From: Patescibacteria group bacterium | GTDB lineage: Bacteria > Patescibacteriota > UBA1384 > CAJBMM01 | NCBI GenBank assembly: GCA_041660565.1 | Contig: JBAZWC010000001.1 | Coordinates: 366,481-430,480 of the forward strand | Reading direction: 5' to 3' | DNA: 64,000 bases | Shown: positions 6,161 to 49,761 of the stretch, piece after piece | Layout: each line of letters starts with the position of its first letter | Position numbering within the stretch: position 1 is the first letter of the stretch | Position numbers and translations under genes: made by a program | The notes under the pieces: model-generated | What the model was told of the DNA's origin: nothing | Databases searched by the model: none | The model's input: only the letters and a program-made list of their open reading frames with translations

Positions 6161-9100
6161 CTAATTCAAGCTAATGTTTATCAACACAGATGGTAGGATA
6201 TTTGATGCGTTGGTTTTGACTGCGCCAAAGCAAGAGTTAACCGCACCAATTTCAGTTGAATCAACCGCGCCCGCCGTGGTGGAGGTAACAGCGCAAGTGT
6301 TACGAACAGCCCCAAAGATGGCTTTTACATAAGCTTGGCCGTTAGTCATCATTATTGCTTGGCCACTGGCCGAATTTCCAACCACAATTACTCCGGCGGC
6401 ACCGGTCATAGACGCTACGCCGGTTTGCTTGACTTGGTTGTCTGCCGAGGTATCATTAATAACTGCGCTGGCAGGCTCTGTGGCGGCTGCGGTGTTGGTA
6501 TAGACGAATGTGCCACCGATAAAGAACCTTGTATCGACTATGTTTGATACGGTGTTAATCCCCGTTGTCGCTTTGGCGATAACTACTGTTGGATAGTTAG
6601 CGTTGTACGCTGGCAAATCTACCGACTTATGCACTTCACAAGCTTGTCCGGTGGTTGAAGCGGTACCACTTGCAGTAAGGTAAACGTATTCAATAGACGA
6701 AGCATCCAACGCAAGGCTTGAATCAGAATTTACAACACAACGGGAAATCTTGGTTGGGCTGGAAATGCTGTCAGAGGTATAAACTGAGCCAGCGGCAATT
6801 TTAATATTAAGCCCAGCGTCTATGCTTGGTTTTAAGGCACTGGTGGCTGAAGTTAAATCTCCCGCTACTGTTCCAGAGTTTGGATCTACACCGACAATCG
6901 GCACACCCGGCAAGCTGTTGCCTGAGGCTATTTTACCTGTTACATCAACAGTAAACACCGATACTGAAGAGCTATTCTTTATGGATAGCAGATCACCAGT
7001 TTGATCTTGCGCTGCGCTGATTGCCAAGGCGGTATCGGCCGCATTTGCCGATCTAATTACCACCGATCCAGCGTTTACCGTACCAGCAGTTATGGTGGTT
7101 GCATTTAGCGTGGTAGTGGTAATTACCGTTGCCATGTTGTTTATCTGAGATTGTAGACTGGCGGTAGTAGTTAATAACGAATTAATCTTTGGCGTGGCGT
7201 CGGTGATAAAGGCATCGTGAGATTGCAATATTGGCAAGTAAAGTACGGCCAGTTGGTTGTATTTAACACCGGTTATCTCGCCTGCAGCATTTCTAATTAC
7301 CAAATCTGGCACGTGCTGGTCTGTTTCTTCAGCAATCAACCCAAAATCTTGTAATCCCGGGGTAGATGAATTTTGATTCCAGGTAAAGTTAACCGGCCGT
7401 AAGGATAAAATTGCACTGGAATCAATTACCTTGGTGGTGATATCGGTTTTATACTTTAGCGACGACGATTGCGGAATAATTGAGGTGCCATTTAAGACCA
7501 ATGCGGTTCCGGCTCCAGCTGCGGCCAGAGTAGCGTCTAATGTCCCTGTAATTGTGGCATTGCCGGTAACAGTTAACCCGGCTGCGGCTGTTAATTCTGT
7601 AACGTTATAAGTTACACCGGCAGTGTTAAGATTGACGATATCAGTACCGGTTCCAACTGTGATTGTCTTTCCACCGGTTGAAGTGATGGATGAGTTCTCG
7701 GCAAAAACCAGGTTGGACGCGTTACCAGACGCTCCTAATAATAACTGATTAGTACCGGTGCCTTGCAAAATCAAATTACCGCTTGAACTAGATATTATGC
7801 CATCAGTTCCATCGTGTGTTAACTGAACGTAGTCAGTATTATCCGAAGCATAAACCCGCAAGTAGTTTTGGGCGCTTGCCATATTGATGTTGGCGATTCC
7901 GGTTGACGCCTGTAAATTAACATCGCCGCCTTGCGCAATTAGCGAATATGCCGCAGCTCCGGTTGAGGCAGTGCCTGAATATGTACCGCCTGACAACGTC
8001 CCACCTGAAATTGTGGCGCCATTAATCGTACCGGCTGCGGTGATAACACCGGCTGAGGAAACTGCGAATTTTGACACACCATTCAATTGCGCATCGATAA
8101 GATTACCAGTAAATCCGGTAGCGGCGTTGACACCGATGCCAGTACCGGCAGTAGACCATCCTGTTGAAGTGGTACCGGCGGGTTCGACTAGTAGTTGAGG
8201 CTTGGTAGTGGTAGCATCGCCCCCCGAGAACCAAGTGCCCGTCAACAACGCGGCGGGAGTAGAAGCGGCACCGTTCGATTGGCTGATTAGCTGTCCGGCT
8301 GCAATCTGCAACGCATAGTTTGCCGTAGTTGCACCGGATGCGGTTAAGTAAGCGGCAACGTTAGTGCCGGAAGTTGCGTTGGTGTTTGTAACACTGGAAT
8401 AAAGTCCGTAAGCAGTGAAGGCGGTATTTGCGTTAGCCCCAGAAACGGCGATGTTAAGCGCTTTGCCTGATCCACTAGCTGTACCGGCGGTGGATGTAAC
8501 CGCCAAGTTAGCCAGATTGCCCGAAGTAAGCGAGCTTGACGAAACATCAACCAAATTTCCAGTGGTAAGAGAGTTGCCTTGAACAGACATCCCCGCAGAT
8601 GTGCCGGTTTGAGTGGTATTAGATGATGCCACCGCCAAGTTGCCGGTAATTGATTGGTTACCAACGATAGTGCTTCCGGTTGAGGTACTGGCACCAGCAG
8701 CTGAGATAGAGAATTTGGAAACGCTGTTTACTTGTAAGTCTAATAGATTTGCCGATTGTCCGGTGGCAGCGTTAACCAGTAAAGCTGTTGACGTGTTGCC
8801 GGAGTTGTTTACGACCAAACCAGTGGCTGCGGTAAGAGTAGCAACATTGTAGGTAACGGTTGCGACATTCAAATTAAATACATCAGCGCCATTTCCAACA
8901 GTAATAGTCTTACCACCTCCGTCGGCTCCACCTAGCGTTGAGCTTTCTTGGAATAACAAGTTTACCGCGGTACCGGTGCTACCTAAAATAAATTGGCTAG
9001 TGCCAGACCCGGTAAGTTGGAGCTCACCGGAGCTACTCGAAATAACTGCATTAGTACCATCATGAGTTAACTCAGCGTATTTTGTACCGGCCGAATCATA

Positions 9101-13242: not shown

Positions 13243-13319
13243 TGGTGGAACCGAGTGGACTCGAACCACTGACCCCCACAATGTCAATGTGATGCTCTAA
13301 CCAACTGAGCTACGGCTCC
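13243..13319 (-). tRNA. tRNA-Val (anticodon GAC), CCA encoded
   Basis: Reverse complement GGAGCCGTAGCTCAGTTGGTTAGAGCATCACATTGACATTGTGGGGGTCAGTGGTTCGAGTCCACTCGGTTCCACCA. Cloverleaf with GTTCGAGTC T-loop and anticodon loop TTGACAT. Confidence 0.85.
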
Positions 13320-13897: not shown

Positions 13898-13985
13898 GGA
13901 CTGTTAGGGTTGTTAGGGAAGTTAGGGCAGTTGGGAAAACCATTAACACCCCCAACCACCCCTAACACCCCTAATTCCCCTTATA
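13898..13985. repeat. TTAGGG-repeat / CCCTAA-repeat imperfect palindrome (G4-capable on both strands) downstream of a four-helix-bundle gene
   Basis: ctgttagggttgttagggaagttagggcagttggg-aaaaccattaacaccc-ccaaccacccctaacacccctaattcccc. Confidence 0.6.
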
Positions 13986-14507
13986 CTTTTGGTTTTTCCT
14001 TTCATTAAACAGTTTTTCACTGTAGCCACCTTCGTTTTTGAATTTTTCTTCCAGACTTGTAATTTGTTTACCCAACAGAAATGTAGTCTGGTTTATAAAT
14101 GTTATCAGCATATTTGCGGCAATTTTAGGGTCACTGGGAAGATCGGGAGTATTAAGGTGACCTAGGTCTACCCAAACTGCCCTAAACTCCCTAAATCCCC
14201 TTACAATTTCATGGTCTTTCCCCAACAGTTCTAGGTTCCTTTGGCGTAAAAAATCTTGATAATCTAACAACAGTTCTTCCTGTGACGCTTTGGCAACCCC
14301 AGTTAGTTTGATATACATTTTCAGTGATTTTTCCACAGAGCCCTCGGCAATGTTTTGTCTGCCACTTCGAGCAGCTTGAATCATTTGCTCTACTAATCTA
14401 CCATATTCTTTACCAGCCAAAAATTTCTGGCAAAAAATTACCGTTAAATCGTATACAATTGTTGCCATTTTAAATGAAGCTAAATTTTTGTAGCCTGATT
14501 GGGGCAT
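13971..14507 (-). CDS. Four-helix-bundle protein (Avd / 23S rRNA IVS protein family) with C-terminal extension
   Basis: …AARSGRQNIAEGSVEKS…EELLLDYQDFLRQRNLELLGKD. Conserved core of about 110 aa. The C-terminal roughly 65 aa overlaps a copy of the GGG/CCC repeat (14140-14200) and may be a read-through. Confidence 0.7.
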   Translation of the reverse strand: MPQSGYKNLASFKMATIVYDLTVIFCQKFLAGKEYGRLVEQMIQAARSGRQNIAEGSVEKSLKMYIKLTGVAKASQEELLLDYQDFLRQRNLELLGKDHEIVRGFREFRAVWVDLGHLNTPDLPSDPKIAANMLITFINQTTFLLGKQITSLEEKFKNEGGYSEKLFNERKNQKYKGN

Positions 14508-17220: not shown

Positions 17221-17286
17221 ATTTTCCTCCCCATCCTATCGTAGCATAATCACAATGGCGTCCGTAAAGTAGGCGATCGACAAAAC

Positions 17287-17652
17287 TTACTTACGTATTC
17301 TTACTTCAAGCAAATTATGGTCTAAATTGATATTAATATCATCTACGGTGATGCCTGGAACCTCTGCCTCAATAATTACTTCTCTTTTAGTTTGATAAAC
17401 ATCAACAGCAATGTTTTTAGGCAGCTCGGGGATATCTTCTTCAATGATAAAGAGCTGTTCAATTGGCGCCTCAAAGAATCTTGAGATGGCGATGGCCACC
17501 GGTACCGATGGTACACATCGCCCGGATTCAAGCGAGATAATCGATTGTCGAGATATCCCAACCGCCTCAGCCAACGCCTCTTGCGTTAGCTCATGCAATT
17601 TGCGCATATCTCTAATGCGATTTTTAATTATCGTAATTTCTTCTTGGCTCAT
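17287..17652 (-). CDS. HTH-XRE DNA-binding domain fused to a truncated alpha-crystallin (Hsp20) domain; putative heat-shock regulator
   Basis: N-terminal LTQEALAEAVGISRQSIISLESG (XRE HTH). C-terminal VDVYQTKREVIIEAEVPGITVDDININLDHNLLEVRIRK matches the first beta-strands of the Hsp20 ACD. Immediately upstream of clpB. Confidence 0.75.
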   Translation of the reverse strand: MSQEEITIIKNRIRDMRKLHELTQEALAEAVGISRQSIISLESGRCVPSVPVAIAISRFFEAPIEQLFIIEEDIPELPKNIAVDVYQTKREVIIEAEVPGITVDDININLDHNLLEVRIRK

Positions 17653-17670
17653 TTTATTTCTTTTAGTAAC

Positions 17671-17790
17671 ATTGTAAAGTATGCTTTACATTTTTGTCAA
17701 TACGTTTTGCTTTATGTTTCTTGTTCGAGCGAATGCGAGAACTACCCAATTTTCCCTATACATCACGGAGTTCTCGTTGCACTCGAACAA
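17671..17790 (-). promoter_or_regulatory. Promoter (TTGACA-18-TACAAT) plus a 23-bp-arm imperfect palindrome (operator or terminator) upstream of the HTH-ACD/clpB unit
   Basis: Minus-strand -35 at 17695-17700 and -10 at 17671-17676. Palindrome arms cttgttcgagcgaatgcgagaac (17720-17742) and gagttctcgttgcactcgaacaa (17768-17790). Confidence 0.5.
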
Positions 17791-17806
17791 AAACGAGATT
17801 CTAATT

Positions 17807-23248: not shown

Positions 23249-24103
23249 TCAGGTCTTGTGGTGATCCAGCCATCCGGCAACCTTGGCGAACATCTGGTAA
23301 ACCGGCAGCGCCAGATCTTCAATACGGTTGAGCATAGCGGCGTACTCGTCTTCGGTTGGAGCACGCGATCTGGCGGGATCATCGTCACTCAGTGGCATAG
23401 TTGAGGCGGCATACCATGCTTCCAGCAATGCGTTGTACCGACGGTCAACAGCCACCGCTTGCGACAGTTCCTGAGCAATATCGCAACCGCGATGCTGTTT
23501 TGCCAACTCGATCACGAATTGCCGAGAGTCATCAGGCATCTCCACGCCCTGATACTCCAATACCTTGCGCGTGAGATGCACCGGCCCCTCGACAATCTTC
23601 TGTAGCCATTCCAACCGGTCAGCACCAACGCGTGGCTTAAGCAGTCGTGAGCCGAAGATGTGCAATTTGTGCACGAGGTAGTTCCCCAAATCAGCCCTTG
23701 CCGTCGTCCCTGTCAGATTTAGGTACCGAAGGGGCGACTGGATGTGTTTGAGCAGACCGTCCGCTTGCTCTGCTCGGCGTAGGTGTTGGCAGAGTCCGTA
23801 TCCGATGGTGTGATAATGTCCACGAGCCAAGCTGAACGGGACTATGTAGATATTCAGCGGGACGTGATTCCCAGCTGCTTGGGCGATCATTCTTTTGCTC
23901 GTCTCGACCATCTCCGCGTAACAATCGTCCCGGCAGATGACCACAAACTCCACATCGCTTCGTCTGTTGATGCCGGCGGCGCGTTTTGGAAGCGTTGACC
24001 CAAACTGAATTGCCGCCACCGGCCGCATCTTGGTAATGGCGATTTTTGCGGTTCGAGCCACTGCCCGAATCTCTTCGGTAGTTGGTACCCGATGATGAAT
24101 CAA
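23249..24103 (-). CDS. Pol-beta-superfamily nucleotidyltransferase-domain protein (Lnu/ANT-like size), high-GC island gene
   Basis: FGSTLPKRAAGINRRSDVEFVV is the GS-x(n)-DxE nucleotidyltransferase motif. About 59% GC versus about 43% in flanking housekeeping genes. Confidence 0.5.
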   Translation of the reverse strand: MIHHRVPTTEEIRAVARTAKIAITKMRPVAAIQFGSTLPKRAAGINRRSDVEFVVICRDDCYAEMVETSKRMIAQAAGNHVPLNIYIVPFSLARGHYHTIGYGLCQHLRRAEQADGLLKHIQSPLRYLNLTGTTARADLGNYLVHKLHIFGSRLLKPRVGADRLEWLQKIVEGPVHLTRKVLEYQGVEMPDDSRQFVIELAKQHRGCDIAQELSQAVAVDRRYNALLEAWYAASTMPLSDDDPARSRAPTEDEYAAMLNRIEDLALPVYQMFAKVAGWLDHHKT

Positions 24104-24254
24104 GTCGTTCCACGAAAATATCTGTCCCTTTAGGGCACCTCCCCCGAGAAGTTTTGGTAAGGTTCTACCTGTTGACGCCTAAGCGTAGGACTTTTTAGCA
24201 CAAATGTCAACCCCGTTAGAAGCGAATCCACCCTTGCCTCTAACGGGGTCAATC

Positions 24255-24345
24255 ACCTTGTCATTCCGGGCTCGATTGTTCCGCTAGGGACTAACGATTC
24301 CGACCGCAAGGTAGCGAGGAGTATCCGGAATCTATGTAAAAGAAT
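24255..24345. repeat. Palindromic GTCATTCCGG…TCCGGAATCTATG repeat element (near-identical copy at 48655-48745)
   Basis: About 88% identity over about 90 nt with 48655-48745. Related units at 48600-48650, 49672-49745, 53399-53495 and 55748-55940. Confidence 0.65.
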
Positions 24346-24437
24346 AGTCAAAACCGTGCTTATTTGGGACCTGTCCCCTATTAAATATAAAAGACGCTCC
24401 GAGGTTGCCCTCGGAGCGGTGTATTCCAGATAAGTCG

Positions 24438-25511
24438 CTATGCCACAGCAACCGGTGGAATGTTGAAGTTGAGCTCGGCAACCCTAAGGTCGCTGGCTGC
24501 ATCCTCGGGAGCGGTCACGTTGATGTAGATTCCGGTGCCCAATTCGAACCCGGCGGCGATTGTCAGGCGGGGCATGATCGTCAGATGCCAATGGAAGTCG
24601 CACTCACGATCCTGGTTCACCGGAGCCGTGTGCAGCATGAAGTTGTACGGTGGATCGTTGAGGCTGGCGCCGATGCACCGCAGTATGTATTGGCAGATGC
24701 TCGCAAACGCGTTGATGGTGCCACGTTCCATCGCTGCGAACGAAGGCATATGCCTCCGCGGCATAATCCATGTCTCGTACGGGTACTTGGCCGCAAACGG
24801 GCAGAAGGCGACAAACTCTGGGTTCTGCGCCACGATGCGCTCGCCTAATTGCTCTTCCTGCTTCAGCATGTCGCAGTAGATGCAGCGATCATGGAAATCG
24901 TAGTACCGCGCAGCACCCGCAATCTTCAACATCACATTCGCCGGCACAATCGGCGTAGCGACCAATTGACAGTGCGAATGGGGTTGCGACGCTCCTCCGA
25001 TTCTCCCCTTGTTCTTGAACAATAGGATGTACTGGAAACGCTTGTCCTGTGTCAGATCAAGAACGCGATCGCGATAGGCCCAGAACACCTCCTGAGCTTG
25101 AAGGCCGGTGACGGTCGCAATAGACCGATTGTGATCGACGCTCTCGATGATGACCTCGTGTGCTCCAATGCCATTCATCTGGTCATACATCCCATAACCC
25201 GTTCTGTCCAACTCGCCCTCGATGGCCAGCGCAGGGAACTTGTTAGGCACCACGCGCGCCCACCAGCCAGGCTTGTTTGGGGCCGAGTCGGCGGAACGGT
25301 AGGCCAACACTTCCGGCGGCGTCATGTACTCATTGCCGGGGCAAAACGGGCATGCATCTTCGTGCTCCCGAAGCGGCGGTTCCGCCACGATCTTGAATTC
25401 GTCCGTCCGCTTACTGCGGCCGGTAGCTACAATGACCCACTCACGGGTCACCGGGTCTTTCCGCAATTGCGGATGCGCCGTGACTTTTGGCATTGTAACA
25501 TCCTCCCCCAT
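24438..25511 (-). CDS. galT: Galactose-1-phosphate uridylyltransferase family (HIT-like, class I GalT) protein
   Basis: Zn-binding CPFCPGNE and catalytic PHSHCQ (HxHxQ) motifs. High GC. Confidence 0.75.
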   Translation of the reverse strand: MGEDVTMPKVTAHPQLRKDPVTREWVIVATGRSKRTDEFKIVAEPPLREHEDACPFCPGNEYMTPPEVLAYRSADSAPNKPGWWARVVPNKFPALAIEGELDRTGYGMYDQMNGIGAHEVIIESVDHNRSIATVTGLQAQEVFWAYRDRVLDLTQDKRFQYILLFKNKGRIGGASQPHSHCQLVATPIVPANVMLKIAGAARYYDFHDRCIYCDMLKQEEQLGERIVAQNPEFVAFCPFAAKYPYETWIMPRRHMPSFAAMERGTINAFASICQYILRCIGASLNDPPYNFMLHTAPVNQDRECDFHWHLTIMPRLTIAAGFELGTGIYINVTAPEDAASDLRVAELNFNIPPVAVA

Positions 25512-25587
25512 GAGTTGTGTGGTACTCGGATGCCCCTACTGTATCTGTAAACAGCAAAATAAGCAATAAGAAAAACGGCCGGCCCCG

Positions 25588-25854
25588 CTAGGGAGCCGAC
25601 CGTGGTCGAGTCTCGAAGATCGCATGGCATAACACGACTAAGCCCATTACAACCTTCAACGCCAGGATCAACACTACGATCGTGATCAGGTCACAGTACG
25701 GGCTGGCCTTTCTGGCGATGTCCACGGCGCTCGTGATACCACATGTGACCACGAAGACCGTGTAGAACACCCATAGACTCGAATTCCTAGTCTTGGGGTG
25801 TATCAACGAGAAGGCAAGGAACGCAAGCGCCATCCACGTAAGCCAGAGCATCAT
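25588..25854 (-). CDS. Small multi-TM membrane protein, tandem paralogue 5 of 5
   Basis: Probable start MMLWLTWMALAF… Follows the previous paralogue closely. High GC. Confidence 0.45.
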   Translation of the reverse strand: MMLWLTWMALAFLAFSLIHPKTRNSSLWVFYTVFVVTCGITSAVDIARKASPYCDLITIVVLILALKVVMGLVVLCHAIFETRPRSAP

Positions 25855-25858
25855 CGCT

Positions 25859-26122
25859 TCACCCCTCCGTCTCGTCGCTTCTGACAAACAACGTCAGATG
25901 CACCGCAACAAATGCGGCGATCAGTAGAACGATGTACATCCATACTTCCTCGAACACTGTCTTCGTAACCCACGTCATCACCACCGACCCCGTAACAGCC
26001 AGAGCGATTGTGGCAACGCACAACACTACCCGCACCTTCCGACGAAGACGAACTACGCCTTGAGCAAGCACAAAGACCAAAACGACCATCGCCCCGACGA
26101 TCCACCACCACGCTACCAACAT
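25859..26122 (-). CDS. Small multi-TM membrane protein, tandem paralogue 4 of 5
   Basis: Probable start MLVAWWWIVGAMVV… (the track ORF extends further upstream). Start is within a few nt of the stop of the gene upstream. Confidence 0.45.
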   Translation of the reverse strand: MLVAWWWIVGAMVVLVFVLAQGVVRLRRKVRVVLCVATIALAVTGSVVMTWVTKTVFEEVWMYIVLLIAAFVAVHLTLFVRSDETEG

Positions 26123-26126
26123 CGCC

Positions 26127-26405
26127 CTAACCCTCCTTGGACGCGAGTTGCCCCCGCCCCCAGCGCGTCGTGAACTCGTACACCTCAACCAGACCGATCG
26201 CGGATACAACCAGCACGACGCACACGCCCGGACTGGTGAACTGGGACGCCACCATTACCACCGTCAGTATAATCCACTTGGTATAGTAGACGTTCATCTC
26301 CGGGGATTGCGGATCAACCTCGATGCTGGACAGATAGCGCTGGTCGTTGGCGATGATTAGCCCCAGCACTGCCAGTGATACTGCCCATATCACCCACGTT
26401 AGCAT
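26127..26405 (-). CDS. Small multi-TM membrane protein, tandem paralogue 3 of 5
   Basis: Probable start MLTWVIWAVSLAVLG…, closely following the upstream stop. Confidence 0.45.
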   Translation of the reverse strand: MLTWVIWAVSLAVLGLIIANDQRYLSSIEVDPQSPEMNVYYTKWIILTVVMVASQFTSPGVCVVLVVSAIGLVEVYEFTTRWGRGQLASKEG

Positions 26406-26749
26406 CTTTTCGCCCCTCCATTGGTCTTGTTCCGCCTGGCGGATTTCAGACCCCAGATCAGAAGCAGCCACGTAGTCGGATTATCGGCAAGGGGTTGCTC
26501 TTGGTTGACTTGGTCAAGCAGGTCATAGATTGCGATGGCTACCAACAGCGCTTCCATCGCGCAGATGGCTGCCAAAGCCACATATCCCCAACCCGCGTAA
26601 GCCCAGCGATGCGTAACCCCTATCATGCATGCCAGCCAACCAACGCCCATAATAATGCGATCGCACACTTTAACACGCTCCGGGTACGCGATCGCGAAGA
26701 TTACCACCGCTACCATAGCCAGCAGTACTACCGCTTGCCACCCGATCAT
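26399..26749 (-). CDS. Small multi-TM membrane protein, tandem paralogue 2 of 5
   Basis: Probable start MIGWQAVVLLAMVAVV… The longer track ORF 26399-26896 overlaps the upstream gene. Confidence 0.45.
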   Translation of the reverse strand: MIGWQAVVLLAMVAVVIFAIAYPERVKVCDRIIMGVGWLACMIGVTHRWAYAGWGYVALAAICAMEALLVAIAIYDLLDQVNQEQPLADNPTTWLLLIWGLKSARRNKTNGGAKRC

Positions 26750-27027
26750 GACAATCTCTCCCTCTCTGCTCGAAAGACAACCAGAAAACACCAGATGAGC
26801 AGACCCGACGCCACCGACGCCATCAAGCGGGCACACAACCACCATCTCCCGGCAAACGTCGAGGTTGGAAATGCGACGATCATCGCCAGCATCCAACCCA
26901 CCAAAACCAGCAGACGACCATCCTTGATCGTCCTAAGATCGTGACAAAACGTCAGCGGAAAACCGCTGATCAAACAGACCGCCGAAAGGACCATGGCGGC
27001 CATTACTGCCCAATGTATTATGTCCAT
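26746..27027 (-). CDS. Small multi-TM membrane protein, tandem paralogue 1 of 5
   Basis: Probable start MDIIHWAVMAAMVLSAV… The longer track ORF would run through the tmRNA promoter. Confidence 0.45.
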   Translation of the reverse strand: MDIIHWAVMAAMVLSAVCLISGFPLTFCHDLRTIKDGRLLVLVGWMLAMIVAFPTSTFAGRWWLCARLMASVASGLLIWCFLVVFRAERERLS

Positions 27028-27055
27028 TTGTTCAGGTCCTCCCCCGGGTTCGTTA

Positions 27056-27084
27056 TTGACAATGTACACCATATTTGGTACAAT
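27056..27084 (+). promoter_or_regulatory. Consensus sigma-70 promoter TTGACA-17-TACAAT for ssrA, with TGTACA dyads
   Basis: -35 at 27056-27061 and -10 at 27079-27084, about 40 nt before the tmRNA 5' end. aaTGTACAcc…caaTGTACAt repeats. Confidence 0.6.
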
Positions 27085-27122
27085 GTACATAGCTAGAACA
27101 TTAAAAATTTGCAAAAAATCAT

Positions 27123-27514
27123 GGGGCTGTATTAGATTCGACAGGCCGTCCACATTCACCCTTGCATAACGAGACGCTCACTCACTCGTAAAACGCGAGC
27201 AAAAAACAATAACTGCCAACAGTTTTGTTAGCAAAGTCAAAGGTGCTTTTGCATCTATGTCCTTTGCGCCAGCTTTCGCCTAAAACCGAAAGCCGTTTGC
27301 TTTCTTCTTCGTTGATGAAGAAAGGCCAAGCGTCATATTATCAACGCGCCAAAGTGTAGATTCATTCTGTAAACTTTGAAAGATACTGAATGTGCTGGGA
27401 TAACTAACTTGGAGTGCTCATTATGTTAGACCAAAAGAAATTTGAACACCTAATTATGTAGAAAAGATGAATGTACCGGTTTGGACAGGAGTGCAACTCT
27501 CCTCAGCTCCACCA
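27123..27514 (+). ncRNA. ssrA: tmRNA (SsrA), one-piece. tRNA-like ends GGGGCUG…UCCACCA. Predicted tag ORF ANSFVSKVKGAFASMSFAPAFA*
   Basis: 5' ggggctgtattagattcgacagg and 3' ggacaggagtgcaactctcctcagctccacca closely parallel E. coli ssrA. Resume codon GCC follows aataact, and the frame ends gct ttc gcc taa. Confidence 0.85.
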
Positions 27515-27597
27515 CGCTAAGCGTGGTAATCGGGACGCTCAGCGTCCCACCAAATGTATGGAATTATTCCATTTTTAATGTTACGACGCTAAGCGTC
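27510..27597. repeat. Three short hairpins of the NNCGC-TNA-GCGNN family directly after the tmRNA 3' end
   Basis: ccacgcTAAgcgtgg, gggacgcTCAgcgtccc and gacgcTAAgcgtc. The same hairpin family occurs at 55882-55917 and 59017-59052. Confidence 0.55.
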
Positions 27598-27604
27598 GCA
27601 AACT

Positions 27605-27952
27605 TTGAAAAACGTTTGGATTAGTACTCTTAGCAACAAAAATGAACCAGAAATGGTTCTTTTTTGTTATAATAATATTATGTATTATGTTTATATTTTA
27701 TTAAGTGATAAAGATGACATGCTGTATTTTGGTAGTACACCAAATTTACAGGAAAGAATCGCAAAACATGACGCTGGATTTGTTAAAGCAACGCAAAACA
27801 GGCGACCACTTAAATTATTATACTACGAGGCATATTCATCAAAAATTGATGCGCTAAAAAGAGAGAAGTATTTTAAGGGAGGGAAAGGCCATAACGACCT
27901 AAAAGTGCAATTTGAGAATACCTTGCTAAAAAATAATTATATATTTCTCTAA
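27605..27952 (+). CDS. GIY-YIG nuclease-domain protein (UPF0213-like small endonuclease)
   Basis: YYVYILLSDKDDMLYFGSTPNLQERIAKHDAG…REKYFKGGKG. The track start is TTG. A more likely start is ATG at 27653 or 27680 (possibly leaderless after a TATAAT at 27667). Confidence 0.75.
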   Translation: MKNVWISTLSNKNEPEMVLFCYNNIMYYVYILLSDKDDMLYFGSTPNLQERIAKHDAGFVKATQNRRPLKLLYYEAYSSKIDALKREKYFKGGKGHNDLKVQFENTLLKNNYIFL

Positions 27953-28065
27953 ACATTTGTAGAATTCCGTCGCAGACATTTTTGATACCAACATGAAAGT
28001 GTTGGTGTTTTTTGTTACAAAAAAACCTACTCATTCAAGTAGGATGTAATCGCCAGAAAATAGAA

Positions 28066-28094
28066 GCGGGAGGCAGCCAATTGGCTGCCTCCCG
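28066..28094. terminator. Perfect GC-rich palindromic hairpin (gcgggaggcagcc-aatt-ggctgcctcccgt) downstream of the secreted paralogue gene
   Basis: 13-bp perfect stem. Same hairpin family at 29031-29059 and 29990-30018. Confidence 0.55.
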
Positions 28095-28123
28095 TGTGAG
28101 ACAGGTGTTGCCGGCGCCGTGGG

Positions 28124-28753
28124 CTAGTCGTGGCCTTGCGGGCAGGCCCGGACATAGTCACCGGCGAATACGCCCGTCACCTGTGTCCCGTAGTTGTACT
28201 GGTTGTCGCGGCAGTTGGAGACCCCGACGTAGTATACGCGGTAGGACGCCGGGTAAATGATGCGCCACGTCCACATCTGCCCGTTGAAGTAGAACTCCTG
28301 GTGTGTCGGAATGATCGCCGAGTTGTTGGCCCACGTTAGCCTGGAGTTGAAGTAGTGTGGCGCATCGGTATCATATTCGTGCGTGCTATTCCAGTACCAA
28401 TCGTACGCCATGGCATGCGTGGCCCACGTCAACTCCTCATGCCACAGCTGGTTACCAACAGCGTCGTACGTGCCATTGGTGCCGCCGTACACCGACTGCC
28501 AAGTGGTCGTGGCGTTGGCGTCGGTGTAGAAGACCCACCTCGGGTGGATGGCGAAGGTCGCGTTGGCATTACCATTGGTGTATGGTTGACCCATCCACTC
28601 GAAGACGAAGAAGACCTCATCTGTCGTGTAGTTGTACGCGCACTCCCAGTCAACCTCGATGTTCGAGTTGTTGAGGTACCCAGGGGTCGCCTGAGCCATC
28701 GTCGGGAAGAGCATGACGGCCAGCGCCGCCAGCAGAACGAGATGCTTACGCAA
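28124..28753 (-). CDS. Secreted W/Y/N/T-rich protein, paralogue A1 (about 209 aa), high-GC island
   Basis: Signal peptide MRKHLVLLAALAVMLFPTMAQA. TTG start preceded by GGAG. C-terminus …CPQGHD. About 60% identical to 29092-29724. Confidence 0.65.
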   Translation of the reverse strand: MRKHLVLLAALAVMLFPTMAQATPGYLNNSNIEVDWECAYNYTTDEVFFVFEWMGQPYTNGNANATFAIHPRWVFYTDANATTTWQSVYGGTNGTYDAVGNQLWHEELTWATHAMAYDWYWNSTHEYDTDAPHYFNSRLTWANNSAIIPTHQEFYFNGQMWTWRIIYPASYRVYYVGVSNCRDNQYNYGTQVTGVFAGDYVRACPQGHD

Positions 28754-28990
28754 TTTCTTCTCCTAGCCCACAAACCGCGGGGGCGGGGTCGGTACTGCAT
28801 GATGGGTACGACAATCATCGTACGGCATACGGCACCCGACTTGGCTAGTCTTACATCACGTCGATAGGCGCATTCCCCCTTGATTCCGACCGAACCAAAA
28901 CCACTACCGGTCTTTTGGAAACCACATCTGTGTGGAATCCACCAGATAAGTAAGTTGTTCAGGTTCGGTGCTGTAATACACACAAAAGGT

Positions 28991-29059
28991 ATAATAACAC
29001 ATCCATATTATTTATGTCAATATATTATAAGCGGGAGGCAGCCCGAAGGCCGCCTCCCG
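28991..29059 (-). promoter_or_regulatory. Terminator hairpin followed by TTGACA-18-TATTAT promoter, a repeated module upstream of each secreted paralogue
   Basis: Hairpin gcgggaggcagcccgaaggccgcctcccgt (29031-29059). Minus-strand -35 at 29015-29020. Module repeated at 29950-30018. Confidence 0.5.
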
Positions 29060-29091
29060 TGTGAGACAGATGTTGCCGGCGCCGTACCGGA

Positions 29092-29724
29092 CTAGTCGTG
29101 GCCCTGCGGGCACGGCCTGAGCTTATCTTCCGAGAAGAAGCTGAAGGGGTCCCCCCAGTTTCGGTTGTTATCGCAACACTTGGTGTCAACGTGGTACGCC
29201 ACGCGGTAAGTCGCGGGGTAAATGGCGTCGTAGTGATACATGTAAGGCGGAATGCCATCCCACACGAGCACGTAATGCCTAGGGATAACCGCCGAGTTGA
29301 GCGCCCAGGTCAGGTGCGAGTTGAAGTAGTGAGTCGTACCGTCGTAGCTGGCGTTCGATGTATCCCATTCCCACCCGTAGGTCATGGCGTGAGTAGCCCA
29401 GGTTATGGACTGTTGCCACAGTATGTTGCCAACTGCGTCGTAAACACCTCCGGAGCCGTACACTTCGTTCCACGGGATAGTGCCGGCGGAATCGGTGTAG
29501 AAGATGTAACACGGGTGAATGGTGAAGTCGGCCTCGGCTGACCCATTGCTTGTCGGCATTCCGCTCCACACGATGTTGTACGAGACGATATCAGTGGTGT
29601 TGTTGTAGGCCACATCCCACTGAATCGTGATGTCGTCAACGGATACGTATCCCGGTGTTGCCGATACGGGGAGCTGGGCAAACATGACGACCAGGGCCGC
29701 CAGCAAAACGAGATGCTTACGCAA
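29092..29724 (-). CDS. Secreted W/Y/N/T-rich protein, paralogue A2 (about 210 aa)
   Basis: Signal peptide, TTG start, C-terminus …RPCPQGHD. Shares a roughly 290-nt conserved upstream leader with A1. Confidence 0.65.
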   Translation of the reverse strand: MRKHLVLLAALVVMFAQLPVSATPGYVSVDDITIQWDVAYNNTTDIVSYNIVWSGMPTSNGSAEADFTIHPCYIFYTDSAGTIPWNEVYGSGGVYDAVGNILWQQSITWATHAMTYGWEWDTSNASYDGTTHYFNSHLTWALNSAVIPRHYVLVWDGIPPYMYHYDAIYPATYRVAYHVDTKCCDNNRNWGDPFSFFSEDKLRPCPQGHD

Positions 29725-30045
29725 TTTCTTCTCCTAGCCCTCAAACCACGGGGGCGGGGTCGGTACTGCACCGAGTGTACGGCATACAGCGCCCGACTTG
29801 GCTAGTCTTACGGCTTCACGACAATAGGCATTTCCCCCTTGATTCCGACCGGACCAAAACCACTACCGGTCTTTTGGAAACCACTCCTGTGTGGAATCCA
29901 CTAGATAAGTAAGTTGTTCAGGTTCGGTGCTGTAATACACACAAAAAGTATAATAACACATCCATATTATTTATGTCAATATATTATAAGCGGGAGGCAG
30001 CCCGAAGGCCGCCTCCCGTGTGAGACAGATGTTGCCGGTTGGCCC

Positions 30046-30546
30046 TTAGGGGGCAATCCATGCAGTCGTCGCGGACGTGGCGGTAGCACCGTCACCCTTC
30101 ACGTACACCTTCAGGGTGACGAGTATGTACTTGTACGGCCACGGGACGTAGTAGGTGATGTCCCTATACGATTGGAAGCTCGGCCGACCCTCGTCGTAAT
30201 CGGCGTAGTCCTGCCAGATGATGTTGCCGTTCTCGAAGGCCTGCGCTCCGGCCGTCTGACCGGAGGCAGAGCAGCTCCCCTTGAGGTCGCAGGTGATGCC
30301 TCCAGAAGTACCTATCCACAACCCGCTCTGCCACGCGTAGACAACAGAGTATGTCGCCGTGGCGTAGCTGTCGTTCTCGTCGTGCCCGACGCCCTTGAGA
30401 TATCCGGAACCGACCGTGAACGTCCCGGTACCGGTGGTGCTGGTGATGACCGGGGTGGTCTGGGTCATCACCCAATCAGCCATCGAGGAGACGGACAGCG
30501 ACATCAGCGCGCAGATCGCAACGAACAGCATGGTTAGACGCTTCAT
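30046..30546 (-). CDS. Secreted Gly/Thr/Tyr-rich protein, paralogue B1 (start at MKRLTMLFVAICALMSL…)
   Basis: Signal peptide. Shared motifs GNDENDSYATATY, WQDYADYD and WPYKYxLVTLKVYVKG with 30805-31308. Confidence 0.6.
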   Translation of the reverse strand: MKRLTMLFVAICALMSLSVSSMADWVMTQTTPVITSTTGTGTFTVGSGYLKGVGHDENDSYATATYSVVYAWQSGLWIGTSGGITCDLKGSCSASGQTAGAQAFENGNIIWQDYADYDEGRPSFQSYRDITYYVPWPYKYILVTLKVYVKGDGATATSATTAWIAP

Positions 30547-30804
30547 TGCTTGGCTCCTGTGTGGTTTGATACAACTGAGCGGGGTCGTTTTGTCTCTGCT
30601 GGGGGCATACGACCACAATGTACGTCACCTGGCTTGGCTGGACTAATATCGATTAGCCATCACCTCCTTTAGGAGTTGCGCAAGCCCGACTCCTTTTTGA
30701 TTGCGATACGACTGAACTTGTCGAACCGCCAGCATATCAACAGTTGGCGACTTGCGCGGGCTACAGGGTACCCACATTATGTGGTTATCGGCTTATGCGC
30801 CAAC

Positions 30805-31308
30805 TCAGTACGTTAACGCTGCGGCGTATGCGGTAGTGCCAGTGCCCTTCACGTACACCTTCAGGGTGACGAGCACGTACTTGTACGGCCACATGACGTA
30901 GTAGCCGTAGTTTTCCGCCGAGTCGTAGGACGTCGGCCCGTCGTCGTAATCGGCGTAGTCCTGCCAAACAATGTTGCCGTTCTGGAAGACCTGCGACCCC
31001 GCCGTCTGTCCAGCCGATGAGGATTGCCCACTGACTATACCCCTGATTCCCCCATTGAAGCCTAACGGTAAACCAGGGCCAACCCACGAGTAGACGACAG
31101 CGTACGTCGCCGTGGCGTAGCTGTCATTCTCATCATTGCCGGTGCCCGATAGTGAGTTGACGCCAGCCACGAAAGTGCCGGTCCCGGTAATCGAGTTGAT
31201 GGTAACAGGACCCTCGAACATCACCCAACCGGCAGGGACAGCCATGGAGGCGACGGACAGCGACATCAGTGCGCAGAAAGCGACGAGCAGCACAGTGAGA
31301 CGCTTCAT
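30805..31308 (-). CDS. Secreted Gly/Thr/Tyr-rich protein, paralogue B2
   Basis: MKRLTVLLVAFCALMSLSVASMA signal. Paralogous to 30046-30546. Confidence 0.6.
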   Translation of the reverse strand: MKRLTVLLVAFCALMSLSVASMAVPAGWVMFEGPVTINSITGTGTFVAGVNSLSGTGNDENDSYATATYAVVYSWVGPGLPLGFNGGIRGIVSGQSSSAGQTAGSQVFQNGNIVWQDYADYDDGPTSYDSAENYGYYVMWPYKYVLVTLKVYVKGTGTTAYAAALTY

Positions 31309-31520
31309 TGCTTGGCTCCTTTTTGATTGCGATACGACTGAGCGTTACGACCGTAAAACACCTGGGTACGCAACAGGATCTTCGAGACCAGCTGTATTCC
31401 CCTTGCGATTCCTGTCAGTAATGGACTAAGTAGGTTGTTCAGGTTCAGCGCTGTAAAACACAATCAATATATTAACACATCCATATTATTCGTGTCAACA
31501 TCCGATGCAACAATAAGTAT

Positions 31521-31549
31521 TTGACATTTGAAAAAATTTATGTTAATAT
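31521..31549 (+). promoter_or_regulatory. Sigma-70 promoter TTGACA-17-TAATAT for the DEAD-box helicase gene
   Basis: -35 at 31521-31526, -10 at 31544-31549. Confidence 0.55.
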
Positions 31550-31640
31550 TAAAATAATGTGATTTTGAATATCGGGTATGTTGGTAGATGTCTCGTTGTT
31601 CAGCGCAAGAGATATAAACCAAACAGAAAGGTATTCATAA

Positions 31641-32849
31641 ATGAATAGCTCTATTTCCTCAGGAACAAAACCGTCTTATAACCGATTTTCGGGCGGAAAC
31701 CGTCGGACTAATTTTAGTGCCAGACCACGTTTTCGGGGTACCTACATTAGCCCGGAAAAATTTATCAATAAAGCAATTGTGCAAGCCGAACAACCGGCTT
31801 ATCAGCCACAAAATCGTTTTCGTGATTTTCATTTTGTAGGGACGTTGCAACGAAATATCGAACAACATGGCTATGTTACCCCCACTCCAATTCAAGACCA
31901 AGCCATTGCCCCAATTTTAGCCGGTCAAGATTTACTAGGCTTAGCCAACACCGGCACCGGTAAAACAGCTGCATTTTTATTGCCAATTATTCAATTAATT
32001 CACGCTGATCCAAATTTAGGCACCGCTTTAATTATTGTGCCAACTCGCGAGCTAGCGCTGCAAATTGACATGGAATTTAGAGCATTCATTCGTGATATGC
32101 GTTTATATTCGGCAGTTTGCGTGGGCGGTGCCAACATTTTTCGTCAGATTTCCACTCTTAGACGCAAACCACATGTCATTATCGGTACCCCGGGGCGGCT
32201 AAAGGATTTGGCTGACCGCGGAGATTTAAACTTATCTACCACCAGAATTTTAGTACTTGATGAAGCTGACAGAATGTTAGATATGGGCTTTAGTAAAGAT
32301 ATCAATGTTTTGGTAGATATGATCCCCCAAAATCGCCAAACATTGTGCTTTAGTGCAACGATTACTGAAACAGTTAAAGGGTTAGTGGATAAATTACTCA
32401 AAGAACATCAAACCATCTCGGTCTGCGCACCGGTAGCCAGCTCTCACATCGATCAAGATGTGGTGCGATACAACTCACCGGAACATCGTCTGGATTTGTT
32501 AATTCAAATGCTAACCAAAGCCGAGTACGAAAAAGTGTTGATTTTTGGCGAAACCAAACGCGGCGTGCAAAAATTATCCGAAAAACTGATGCAATCTGGC
32601 ATCACCGCCGAAGCCATTCATGGCAACAAATCGCAACCGCAGCGACAGCGCGCCTTGCAAGCGTTTCGTGATAACAACGTTAAAGCGTTGGTGGCTACCG
32701 ATGTAGCTGCCCGCGGATTAGATATTTCCGATATTTCGCATGTAATTAACTACGATCAGCCAAATACGTTTGACGACTACGTTCATCGCATTGGCCGCAC
32801 CGGTCGTGCCGGCAAAACCGGCAAAGCTCTCACCTTCGTCCAAGGATAG
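31641..32849 (+). CDS. DEAD-box ATP-dependent RNA helicase
   Basis: Q-motif, ANTGTGKTAAF (Walker A), DEAD, SAT and HRIGRTGRAG motifs. Confidence 0.92.
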   Translation: MNSSISSGTKPSYNRFSGGNRRTNFSARPRFRGTYISPEKFINKAIVQAEQPAYQPQNRFRDFHFVGTLQRNIEQHGYVTPTPIQDQAIAPILAGQDLLGLANTGTGKTAAFLLPIIQLIHADPNLGTALIIVPTRELALQIDMEFRAFIRDMRLYSAVCVGGANIFRQISTLRRKPHVIIGTPGRLKDLADRGDLNLSTTRILVLDEADRMLDMGFSKDINVLVDMIPQNRQTLCFSATITETVKGLVDKLLKEHQTISVCAPVASSHIDQDVVRYNSPEHRLDLLIQMLTKAEYEKVLIFGETKRGVQKLSEKLMQSGITAEAIHGNKSQPQRQRALQAFRDNNVKALVATDVAARGLDISDISHVINYDQPNTFDDYVHRIGRTGRAGKTGKALTFVQG

Positions 32850-32925
32850 GAGACTGTTCTCAACGTCCCCTGCCTTGGTTTTGGGATGGGTTTAGTGTAT
32901 AAAGATACCGAGGGGGAAGACAGCG

Positions 32926-33453
32926 ATGGAATACTACGTTGGTGTGCCTCTGCCCCAACCGCTCGACTACTACATCCACGTGGTTAGACGCACGTGGGGG
33001 TGCCGAAACAAAAGCGACCCGCATTTGACCTTGATGGTGCCGCGGAGTCTGTTACCAAACCGGACTGAGCGTGAGCTAACCACAGCGCTGGCCGGAATTG
33101 CTGCTCAGCCACTGGTATTTGAGGTTTCGATTAACGGTTTTGGGGTGTTTGAGGAAATCGGCAACCTTCATCTGGTTGTGGATCGTAGCGACCAGTTGGT
33201 GGCTTGCTGCAAGGCCATCGATCATGCGGTTGAGGGGATTTTGGCACCTTCGGCGTCTAAGTACGCCCATATCCCCAGCCCACACATCACCGTACTAGAC
33301 AGGCTACCACAAAAAGACCTTGCTTTGGCATTGGCACAGCTTGGCCCGTACAAGTTTGGGCCAACCCACCTTCAATGCAGCACACTCCACCTATTCAAAG
33401 ATGGCAACTCGACCATCGGCTGGCAGATAGCCCAGACCATCAGACTCAGCTAA
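32926..33453 (+). CDS. 2H phosphoesterase (LigT/ThpR-like RNA 2',3'-cyclic phosphodiesterase), high GC
   Basis: Two H-x-T-x motifs (PHLTLMVP and PHITVLD) about 85 aa apart. Confidence 0.65.
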   Translation: MEYYVGVPLPQPLDYYIHVVRRTWGCRNKSDPHLTLMVPRSLLPNRTERELTTALAGIAAQPLVFEVSINGFGVFEEIGNLHLVVDRSDQLVACCKAIDHAVEGILAPSASKYAHIPSPHITVLDRLPQKDLALALAQLGPYKFGPTHLQCSTLHLFKDGNSTIGWQIAQTIRLS

Positions 33454-33534
33454 ACCCGCCCGGTTAACGCCGCGGCGGGTTCAACTTATATAAAAAAGAG
33501 GGCGGCCGCGACATGCGCGAACGCCCTACTCCCC

Positions 33535-34257
33535 CTAGAACTTGACCTCGAGTGATGTGGTGATGGTGTCATTGATGCACCCGGAAGAGCTACCGACGCT
33601 CTTCTGCAGTGCAATCTCGGGCACCAACGTCACCTTGCCCGCGGCAATCGGCCGCTTGATGATCAGCCGAAGGTGGCTGACCAGCTCGGGCTGGGCGCCA
33701 AACGCGCCATCGTTCCCCCCGGCGGACAACTCCAGATTGCATCCCTTGATGGAGCTTTTGACTCCCACCCGCCAGAACATCCCGCCCTCCAGGATGTTGG
33801 GGCTGTCGGGTACGCAGCTGTCGACCGAGATAAACGGTCGCACCAGCCCGCGATTCGCCGTTAGAGACGTGGTCAGGTCGTGCACGTCACCCCGCCAGTG
33901 CCCCACCGGCATTAGGTCGAAGAAGCAATATTCGACATTGACATTGGCCTGTCCGCGCCAGATGTTGCTGGCATAGCCGACGCCGTAGTCGATTTCCGAC
34001 GCCCAGTCTCGGTTCCAGCCCGACCGGGTGGGGACGCATCCCCACACATAGGCGTAGAACGGGCCCTTGGCGGCGGTGGCCATCCCCTGCACCACCGGCT
34101 TGTTGTAGATGACGTTCCCGGTCACACTGCCGGTGTACTGGCTGCGCCACTTGATCATGTACGACATCTGCTGGGCATCGGACGTGCGGGCCAAGCCCAG
34201 AGACATCAGAATGACTACGACCATCGCCCTGCAATGCATTGCCGTCTCCTTATGCAA
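33535..34257 (-). CDS. Secreted protein with outer-membrane beta-barrel-like features (MipA/OmpV-like composition, C-terminal Phe), high GC
   Basis: Signal peptide. Alternating aromatic/hydrophilic beta-strand pattern. Terminal …SLEVKF. Start probably at the internal MHCRAMVVVILMSLGLA. Confidence 0.45.
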   Translation of the reverse strand: MHKETAMHCRAMVVVILMSLGLARTSDAQQMSYMIKWRSQYTGSVTGNVIYNKPVVQGMATAAKGPFYAYVWGCVPTRSGWNRDWASEIDYGVGYASNIWRGQANVNVEYCFFDLMPVGHWRGDVHDLTTSLTANRGLVRPFISVDSCVPDSPNILEGGMFWRVGVKSSIKGCNLELSAGGNDGAFGAQPELVSHLRLIIKRPIAAGKVTLVPEIALQKSVGSSSGCINDTITTSLEVKF

Positions 34258-44663: not shown

Positions 44664-44738
44664 TGGCTCCCCGGGTCAGATTCGAACTGACGACCAACTC
44701 GTTAACAGCGAGCTGCGCTACCGCTGCGCTACCGGGGA
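44664..44738 (-). tRNA. tRNA-Asn (anticodon GTT), CCA encoded, with a hairpin+T-run terminator just downstream (about 44620-44650)
   Basis: Reverse complement TCCCCGGTAGCGCAGCGGTAGCGCAGCTCGCTGTTAACGAGTTGGTCGTCAGTTCGAATCTGACCCGGGGAGCCA. Confidence 0.85.
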
Positions 44739-45899: not shown

Positions 45900-46005
45900 A
45901 CTGTTGTTTTGTAATTTAATAACATATTTATAAGCACAGCGTTGTGTATATCCGTTTGGGTGTGCAGATCGCTGTGTTTATCTACATGGTAAATAGGAGG
46001 AAACC

Positions 46006-46416: not shown

Positions 46417-46427
46417 CATTCCATCGC

Positions 46428-46470
46428 AGGGCGTTTCCGCAGAACATCGCGGAGGCGCCCTAACTTTTAT
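46428..46470 (+). terminator. Rho-independent terminator, duplicate of 45803-45850
   Basis: Identical 36-nt hairpin core followed by a T-run. Confidence 0.7.
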
Positions 46471-46554
46471 CTGATTAAAAAAATAAGACCATCAACGGTC
46501 TTTTTTTAGTAACTACCTTATGTCATAAAACTATCACAAAAATAAAGGAGGAAT

Positions 46555-46890: not shown

Positions 46891-46953
46891 TTATTAAAAG
46901 AATAGGCCCCGACGCATTGCGCGCCGGGGCCTTTGGGCTGGGTATGGGCTGGA

Positions 46954-49356: not shown

Positions 49357-49367
49357 TCGGTGATCGA

Positions 49368-49745: not shown

Positions 49746-49761
49746 TGACATGGCCGAGTGA

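Follow-up and report, generated by a model that had tools for sequence, protein, structure and literature searches.

A truncated helix-turn-helix/small heat-shock protein fusion ahead of clpB points to a candidate heat-shock repressor family in Patescibacteria

The stretch of DNA considered here (the window) comprises 64,000 nucleotides from a Patescibacteria group bacterium (assembly GCA_041660565.1, contig JBAZWC010000001.1, forward-strand positions 366,481 to 430,480). Its subject is a short gene, lying on the minus strand directly upstream of clpB, that encodes a protein of 121 amino acids (aa) in which a helix-turn-helix (HTH) domain of the XRE type is joined to a remnant of the alpha-crystallin domain (ACD) of small heat-shock proteins (sHSPs). 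An earlier inspection of the letters alone, referred to below as the sequence-only reading, had singled out this open reading frame (ORF) as a candidate thermosensing regulator of clpB. The reading frame, its XRE-type HTH and its position ahead of clpB in the same orientation are all as that reading described them (Table 1); the gap to clpB measures 66 nucleotides (nt). An identical gene is found in an independent contig of the Logan assemblies, and the sequence of locus L001 is contained in the window letter for letter. A word-index homolog search of 5.8 billion protein clusters with the 121-aa protein retrieved only the protein itself, the sole sequence of this form.

The amino-terminal half of the protein is a CylR2-type HTH. 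The Pfam model HTH_3 matches residues 13-66 with an expectation value (E) of 2.8e-12 and a score of 46.9 bits, against a cut-off of 23, and the closest solved structures are those of the 65-aa PbsX-family protein DR_2454 (PDB 9k3w, E 1.7e-10) and of CylR2 (1utx, E 3.9e-5). Both proteins belong to the same HTH subfamily as the window protein, being built of five helices and a two-stranded sheet and having the recognition helix VSRQTI; in the alignment the recognition helix of the window HTH is the invariant VSRQ(S/T)I. An AlphaFold2 model of the 121-aa protein, with a predicted local distance difference test score (pLDDT) of 89, has the same five helices and a sheet formed by strands 9-11 and 68-70, followed by four further strands at residues 83-87, 92-96, 106-111 and 114-119. 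The best Foldseek matches of this model were 9k3w and 1utx, for which the template-modelling score normalised to the target (TMt) was 0.90-0.91 and the root-mean-square deviation 0.7 Å. By its likeness to CylR2, a dimer of which Rumpel et al. reportedly placed on an inverted repeat in 2004, the window HTH would be expected to bind an inverted repeat as a homodimer, and we treat this activity as putative.

The carboxy-terminal half is a fragment of an ACD, as the sequence-only reading had proposed in naming a peptide that corresponds to residues 83-119, and profile comparisons bear this out. The NCBIfam model Hsp18_Clos aligns residues 69-118 with its positions 33-80 of 147 at E 5.2e-6, and other NCBIfam models of sHSPs (archaeal Hsp20, 5.2e-5; Hsp14, 1.3e-4) likewise align at the start of the domain. 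The scores of 22-27 bits fall far under the family cut-offs of 100-195 because only about 40% of the ACD is present, and the Pfam model HSP20 (PF00011) gave no match to the 121-aa protein even at E<=1. Searches built from the closer relatives described below are more decisive: a hidden Markov model (HMM) of the ACD alone matches the protein at E 9.2e-10, and hhalign places its last 49 aa exactly on strands beta2-beta5 of a profile of 30 full-length fusions, with a probability of 97.1% and E 6.2e-11. A complete Hsp20 domain is a sandwich of strands beta2-beta9, of which the window protein has beta2-beta5 only; it can be aligned through beta5 (LLEVRIRK versus VLTIKGER) and then ends, and no ACD-coding remnant was found in any frame in the 66 nt past the stop codon. 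Missing from it, and present in its orthologs, are beta6-beta9, the C-terminal IXI tail and the sHSP N-terminal region of roughly 40 aa. The N-terminal region is the client-binding part of sHSPs.

The window protein has relatives in which both halves are complete. An exhaustive HMMER search recovered many proteins of 190-260 aa that match the HTH and the ACD together, and members of the family so defined consist of an XRE HTH, a linker and a complete sHSP, in 190-290 aa as against the 121 of the window protein. The best 120 profile matches, counted as clusters, mostly contain both PF01381 and PF00011, with the exception of P0011 (148 aa), which lacks PF00011. With solved sHSPs the family profile reaches E values as low as 1e-25, in alignments that take in the N-terminal region as well as the ACD and C-terminal tail; with CylR2/9k3w the values are 1e-18 to 1e-23. 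In an AlphaFold2 model of one ortholog, P0167, the HTH is followed by an sHSP N-terminal region that is predicted with low confidence and contains a single helix, then by seven ACD strands and a tail. The family is large and common in Patescibacteria, and its members appear under source names that say only "Hsp20 family protein" (Patescibacteria), "Spore protein SP21" (candidate division WS2) or "putative transcriptional regulator", and there is no NCBIfam model specific for an HTH-Hsp20 fusion.

Orthology and synteny place the window gene within this family. Two loci, L011 and L012, have the gene order of the window, in which a PD-(D/E)XK nuclease gene is followed by the regulator and clpB, and L012 has xseA-xseB upstream as well; at L010 and at L059, the latter a locus in a Saccharibacteria genome, the fusion gene is again followed by clpB. 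The fusions at these syntenic loci are all full-length (227 aa at L011, 225 aa at L012 and 230 aa at both L010 and L059). ClpB identity across syntenic loci is 61-69%, the ClpB of L059, from a metagenome-assembled genome (MAG) labelled "uncultured Candidatus Saccharibacteria", being 65% identical to that of the window; a Saccharibacterium or near kin of one is accordingly the most likely source of the window.

The two halves of the window protein have diverged to very different extents. Its HTH is 63-71% identical to those of P0002, P0181 and P0167, compared with 56-68% among the others themselves, and it retains all of the family-invariant residues. Over beta2-beta5 of the ACD, its identity to the others is 31-36%, versus 60-76% among the full-length proteins. 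As judged from these alignments, the window gene is a degenerate ortholog of the fusions of an HTH with a complete Hsp20; its DNA-binding half is under what looks like normal constraint, and its remnant has changed at about twice the rate of the corresponding segment elsewhere. Conservation of the HTH while the remnant diverged argues that this is neither a recent accident nor a dead gene, and suggests a repressor that shed its chaperone half. The sequence-only reading had treated the short fusion as a designed state, a view that does not hold up beside its full-length orthologs. Other independent degenerate variants occur in the family, namely P0083 (135 aa, with an internal deletion in the ACD) and P0133 (126 aa).

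Upstream of the gene is a promoter of the sigma-70 type that matches 11 of 12 consensus positions, with a -35 hexamer that is conserved in relatives. Within its 18-nt spacer, and overlapping the -10 box, lies a perfect palindrome of 7+7 nt, TGTAAAG-tatg-CTTTACA, the right arm of which itself makes the -10 hexamer. The same 18-bp element, TGTAAAG-N4-CTTTACA, occurs with 0-1 mismatch (none in the window) immediately 5' of the family gene at 11 of 11 independent loci (the window, L002, L004, L006, L008, L010, L011, L012, L013, L134 and L135), and these extend to candidate division WS2 and to distant Patescibacteria, with protein identities to the window of only 26-40%. No second operator of equal quality was found in the flanks of the 11 family loci. 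Placed upstream of every examined family gene, this element is the signature of a putatively autoregulated repressor. Because the palindrome sits between the TTGACA -35 box and a -10 box made by its own arm, binding should occlude RNA polymerase.

The spacing downstream of the promoter varies between the window and its relatives. In most fusion loci the ATG follows the -10 box by about 7-8 nt, the start codon lying 8 nt after the operator (L008, L011, L012, L013, L022, L030, L051, L055, L068, L070 and L114), a distance so short that a leaderless regulator mRNA is probable. The window gene has 18 nt between -10 box and ATG, without a Shine-Dalgarno sequence.

A different and longer palindrome had been put forward by the sequence-only reading as the site of the regulator, with arms of 23 bp just upstream of the promoter. 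A hairpin does exist there, immediately upstream of the -35 box, but its arms are imperfect, consisting of a 12-nt segment that is 92% complementary and an 8-nt segment that is 100% complementary, with one indel. As RNA it folds with a free energy of -31.5 kcal/mol (z -4.95), a stability that none of 200 shuffled sequences attained; it has no U tract and no Rfam match. The hairpin was rejected as an operator, since it is not conserved and orthologous loci carry other hairpins at that position, one of them a canonical terminator, so that the conserved 18-bp palindrome takes its place as the candidate site. It was likewise rejected as a dispersed repeat, its arms recurring in the window no more often than by chance. 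Probably it serves the nuclease gene upstream, as a terminator or insulator.

The relationship of the regulator to clpB is less direct than first supposed. The regulator gene is followed by clpB at seven loci (the window, L010, L011, L012, L059, L114 and L134), all within one Saccharibacteria-centred sub-clade, and the pairing is missing in most of the wider family; the proposed conservation beside a chaperone gene therefore applies to the sub-clade and not beyond it. No locus has the operator directly before clpB, and among the matches listed in the genome scan described below clpB is found solely downstream of a fusion gene (L059 and L114). The intervals between regulator and clpB, compared at six loci, range from 66 to 296 nt, show no sequence relationship and share no conserved element or second operator. 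Given no operator at clpB and no conservation of the spacers, the control of clpB that the sequence-only reading envisaged could operate only through co-transcription. The window spacer has no terminator-like site and only weak structure (-9.8 kcal/mol), and clpB is most plausibly co-transcribed with the regulator gene and so tied to its regulon. At L134 (3584-6225) the 135-aa P0083, with its operator present, is separated by 6 nt from a gene for a 733-aa ClpB that lacks Clp_N, in what is an evident operon. The window spacer also contains an 11-nt copy of the left half of the operator, GTAAAGTAGGC versus GTAAAGTATGC, a half-site only that could be due to chance.

Table 1. Features of the 64,000-nt window (positions count from its first letter)
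Feature	Position	Strand	Basis or remarks
Gene for the 121-aa HTH and ACD-remnant protein	17287..17652 (stop codon included)	-	ORF list, profiles, alignments
XRE/CylR2-type HTH domain, residues about 8-70	17443..17631	-	HTH_3, PDB 9k3w/CylR2 matches, Foldseek, alignment
ACD remnant, residues about 80-121, strands beta2-beta5 only	17290..17415	-	NCBIfam, hhalign, ACD HMM, alignment
Promoter TTGACA-18 nt-TACAAT	17700..17671	-	promoter scan
-35 hexamer TTGACA	17695..17700	-	promoter scan
-10 hexamer TACAAT	17671..17676	-	promoter scan
Candidate operator, 18 bp	17673..17690
Long hairpin with imperfect arms, in the interval from the PD-(D/E)XK nuclease gene (stop at 17807) to the -35 box	17718..17793	-	inverted-repeat search, RNA folding; arms about 17718-17743 / 17769-17793
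Spacer from regulator gene to clpB, 66 nt	17221..17286	-	sequence scans
Half-copy of the operator, 11 nt	17264-17274
clpB, 876 aa	14590..17220	-	TIGR03346, 1233.6 bits vs cut-off 1232.1; Pfam Clp_N, two AAA modules, D2-small
ORF of 178 aa directly after clpB	13971-14507	-	PF05635 ("23S rRNA-intervening sequence protein"), 29.5 bits vs cut-off 33.8
ORF of 1277 aa	860-4693	-
ORF of 2147 aa	6161-12604	-
tRNA gene	13246-13319	-
tRNA gene	44667-44738	-
tmRNA gene	27123-27514	+	137 bits

The reach of the operator was gauged by scanning one genome per species, for 185,579 species, with the exact pattern TTGACA-N3-4-TGTAAAG-N4-CTTTACA, the -35 box being required. This pattern specifies 20 bases, for which we estimate that no more than a handful of chance matches should be expected. 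The first gene downstream in the orientation of the promoter was classed by HMMs and phmmer, with Pfam-confirmed HSP70, Cpn10, GrpE and ParB proteins as references. In Patescibacteria (here Saccharibacteria, Berkelbacteria and unclassified members) that gene is an HTH-ACD fusion at no fewer than 14 loci, all with the promoter and operator architecture seen in the window; it is dnaK at 13 or more, two unclassified "bacterium" MAGs (L057 and L103) included, and groES at 11 or more. At least one further locus has grpE-dnaK, and at least one a 66-aa HTH alone. Four or more MAGs (CAZIYE01, JAPLVH01, CAYPDD01 and CAZOJE01) combine a fusion site with a dnaK or groES site.

Outside this group the operator keeps different company. 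In non-Patescibacterial phyla, that is, outside the candidate phyla radiation (CPR), and in one Parcubacterium, at least about 19 loci have either a small polytopic membrane protein followed by an HTH of 62-109 aa from the same subfamily, or the HTH alone. The membrane protein, of 130-190 aa, has no Pfam match, and with the HTH gene that comes next it makes up a widespread, CylR1/CylR2-like two-gene module (L015, L025, L027, L031, L037, L041, L053, L075, L087, L088, L094, L101, L104, L107, L115 and L132). The recognition helix VSRQ(S/T)I is common to the window HTH, those of the fusions and the small HTHs of other phyla. As judged from these loci, operator specificity is a property of the CylR2-type HTH subfamily, and the distribution indicates that in Patescibacteria the member of that subfamily would be the sHSP fusion, with classical heat-shock genes as its targets.

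A further set of matches comes from the Streptococcus mitis/oralis group, in which parB is the first gene downstream at at least about 50 loci. In Streptococcus mitis, oralis and pseudopneumoniae an exact TTGACA-N4-TGTAAAG-N4-CTTTACA lies 29 nt upstream of parB, which encodes a protein of 252 aa with ParB_N and HTH_ParB (examples are L016, at 7216-7243 on the minus strand, L021 and L024). These look like one inherited site.

Occurrence of the operator at the fusion gene, dnaK, grpE-dnaK and groES indicates a heat-shock regulon that would be independent of CIRCE and HAIR. Near the window locus no CIRCE element was found at up to 4 mismatches, and no HAIR or CtsR box either, matches with 3 mismatches to the latter two lying only elsewhere or inside coding sequence. 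The suggestion of a CIRCE/HAIR-independent circuit made by the sequence-only reading is thus borne out, at the level of the family.

These observations can be brought together in a single scheme. The HTH dimer would bind the 18-bp TGTAAAG-N4-CTTTACA as CylR2 does its inverted repeat, and in Patescibacteria the promoter and operator so controlled would drive the fusion gene, dnaK, grpE-dnaK and groES. In the full-length form, unfolded proteins that capture the sHSP half, or heat that remodels the oligomer, would take the repressor off the DNA. The window gene still has its DNA-binding half along with the promoter and a perfect operator, and its product would repress its own promoter and thereby the operon of truncated regulator and clpB. 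On this account the HTH-sHSP fusions are probably the missing heat-shock repressors of Patescibacteria, and the window protein is probably a repressor stripped of its chaperone and sensor function, not a purpose-built thermosensor. We consider it fairly probable, taking the account as a whole, that the window gene belongs to a family of heat-shock repressors and encodes an autorepressor of its operon with clpB, the chaperone/sensor half having been lost. A more ambitious version makes the fusions master repressors across Patescibacteria (Saccharibacteria, Berkelbacteria, WS2 and others), in which one polypeptide would be at once chaperone and repressor, repress its own gene as well as dnaK, grpE and groESL from their promoters, and be titrated by clients, and the window protein would be a natural "sensor-less" allele that keeps the operon of truncated regulator and clpB under this control; this version seems to us evenly balanced between right and wrong.

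Several points weigh against the account just given. We infer DNA binding by the HTH, repression, the co-transcription of clpB and the mechanism of induction from sequence comparison, and the account leaves unexplained how heat would inactivate a protein without an sHSP half. The strands that AlphaFold2 assigns to the remnant derive from an alignment of full-length homologs and are not independent evidence that it folds. TATAAT-like boxes are present in the regulator-clpB spacers of L010 and L012, and together with the lack of conservation among spacers they suggest that clpB may own a promoter and be largely independent. The operator scan yielded at least 120 stretches, and its locus counts are a sample, not a census. 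Finally, the window holds a single copy of the operator and no dnaK, groES, hsp20 or further ACD was found in it, so that it affords no view of the regulon in this genome.

The strongest of the competing explanations is the original one, in which the ACD fragment is itself the sensor: half a beta-sandwich would unfold with heat, or bind unfolded proteins, and so release the HTH and induce clpB. In its favor, ORF, promoter and operator have all stayed intact, and the remnant, which can still be recognized as an ACD, was retained even though relatives of 62-70 aa that consist of the HTH only show that this domain can stand alone. Moreover, a second degenerate variant also lies directly before clpB, and short forms may be tolerated or even favored in that position. 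What the fragment lacks, however, is the client-binding N-terminal region along with beta6-beta9 and the IXI tail, the elements of dimer and oligomer formation, and its rapid divergence, about twice that of the same segment in full-length orthologs, fits relaxed constraint. With just one sequence of this form among 5.8 billion protein clusters, and clpB without an operator, the proposal is weakened, and we think it unlikely.

The rapid divergence of the remnant could also be that of a decaying pseudogene, in which a deletion destroyed the sHSP half, the rest is functionless and clpB is served by its own promoter. The gene has undergone two separate losses, one taking the N-terminal region of some 40 aa and the other the second half of the ACD, which are in keeping with such decay, and inspection of the spacer before clpB reveals an extended -10-like sequence, TGTGATTAT. 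Decay should not, however, have spared the HTH, whose conservation equals that seen between functional orthologs (63-71% versus 56-68%), with the family-invariant residues kept and the frame open, nor the -35 box, the -10 box and a perfect operator, all of which survived while the remnant fell to 31-36% identity. We therefore give this explanation little credence.

It is about equally improbable that another factor binds the palindrome and that the fusions are merely sHSP genes of its regulon, their HTH serving, for example, to tether the chaperone to DNA. Binding of the operator by the protein is a prediction here, and chaperone genes would be expected to share some regulator in any event. 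Against this stands the distribution of the operator outside Patescibacteria: the operons that follow it there have nothing in common except a small HTH, which belongs to the same subfamily and has the same recognition helix. The presence of the operator in the promoter of every examined fusion gene, the usual mark of an autoregulated XRE repressor, is a second objection. A repressor of the phage or toxin-antitoxin type, lodged beside clpB by chance, would suit the best NCBIfam matches of the HTH (RstR, HipB-like and PezA antitoxin models, each below its cut-off) but is highly improbable in view of the synteny with housekeeping genes that is kept across genomes at 61-69% ClpB identity, the absence of toxin or phage genes nearby, and the finding that only 2 of 2.9 million viral contigs have the promoter and operator, neither with an HTH or ACD downstream.

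A few further features lie elsewhere in the window. Table 1 lists a tmRNA gene, two tRNA genes and two very large ORFs, and no rRNA is present in the window. The larger ORF (2147 aa) has abundant Gly/Ser/Thr/Ala repeats and resembles a surface or fiber protein of the kind seen in CPR genomes. The GC content is 0.52-0.58 at 24000-34000 and 46000-50000, versus about 0.43 elsewhere, and these GC-rich stretches may be foreign DNA or have an unusual coding content; between 24 and 31 kb there are many short overlapping ORFs on both strands.

The proposed system has parallels among known regulators. CylR2, the repressor of the Enterococcus faecalis cytolysin, is a small dimer that binds an inverted repeat in a promoter and takes its signal from another protein, its membrane partner CylR1 (PMC3709268). 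The operons of membrane protein and small HTH that carry the same operator outside the CPR look like CylR1/CylR2, whereas in the fusions the partner module would be an sHSP in cis (in the window, its remnant) and the targets chaperone genes instead of a bacteriocin operon. In the HrcA/CIRCE and HspR/HAIR systems, palindromic operators within sigma-70 promoters repress dnaK and groESL, and the availability of a chaperone is the feedback signal. The fusion family would follow the same logic on the same kind of targets with unrelated proteins and operators, HrcA being a winged-helix protein and HspR of the MerR type, and where their co-repressors GroEL and DnaK are separate molecules the sHSP here is covalently attached.

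Parallels also exist among the sHSPs and the regulators of clp genes. The sHSP IbpA of E. coli, which has no DNA-binding domain, limits its own production by acting post-transcriptionally on the mRNA that encodes it, and is titrated by aggregates; there too an sHSP is the aggregation sensor of its own loop, and the fusion family would differ in acting at promoters, those of dnaK and groES among them. The repressors RheA, of Streptomyces hsp18, and CtsR are intrinsic thermosensors that control sHSP or clp genes. They resemble what the ACD fragment would be if it were a sensor, yet they have no sequence relationship to the window protein, for which there is no evidence of intrinsic thermosensing. 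ClgR of Actinobacteria (PDB 3f51) is an XRE-type activator of clp genes with another operator, no ACD and regulation by proteolysis; an XRE HTH is common to it and the window protein, as putatively is control of a Clp-family gene, and Foldseek ranks it 33rd (E 4e-3), a weak structural likeness, whereas the ACD remnant sets the window protein apart. Canonical sHSPs (Hsp16.5, Hsp16.9, SpHsp16.0 and IbpA/B) are matched by the full-length fusions, to which the family adds an N-terminal HTH; the window protein matches over beta2-beta5 only.

A heat-shock repressor that takes its feedback from a chaperone and acts on a palindromic operator is therefore a known principle, and what appear to be new are the fusion of the chaperone in cis, the operator that goes with it and the phyletic home of the system. 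Our literature search, which left most subscription journals outside its range, found nothing on HTH-Hsp20 fusions, the TGTAAAG-N4-CTTTACA operator or heat-shock regulation in the CPR, and we know of no description of chaperone regulation in these bacteria.

For the Patescibacteria, the locus provides a candidate regulator, an 18-bp operator in its promoter and a putative regulon consisting of the regulator itself, dnaK, grpE and groES, with clpB added by operon linkage. If the proposed scheme is true, this would be the first heat-shock repressor to have its chaperone sensor fused in cis, a minimal form of the chaperone-titration logic otherwise embodied in HrcA-GroEL, HspR-DnaK and sigma32-DnaK, and one that would fit genomes of less than 1 Mb. 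The truncated allele of the window and the degenerate allele of L134 would then represent natural separation-of-function variants. More broadly, a CylR2-type HTH with one conserved DNA specificity would have been re-used with different inputs: in many phyla a membrane protein, in Patescibacteria an sHSP.

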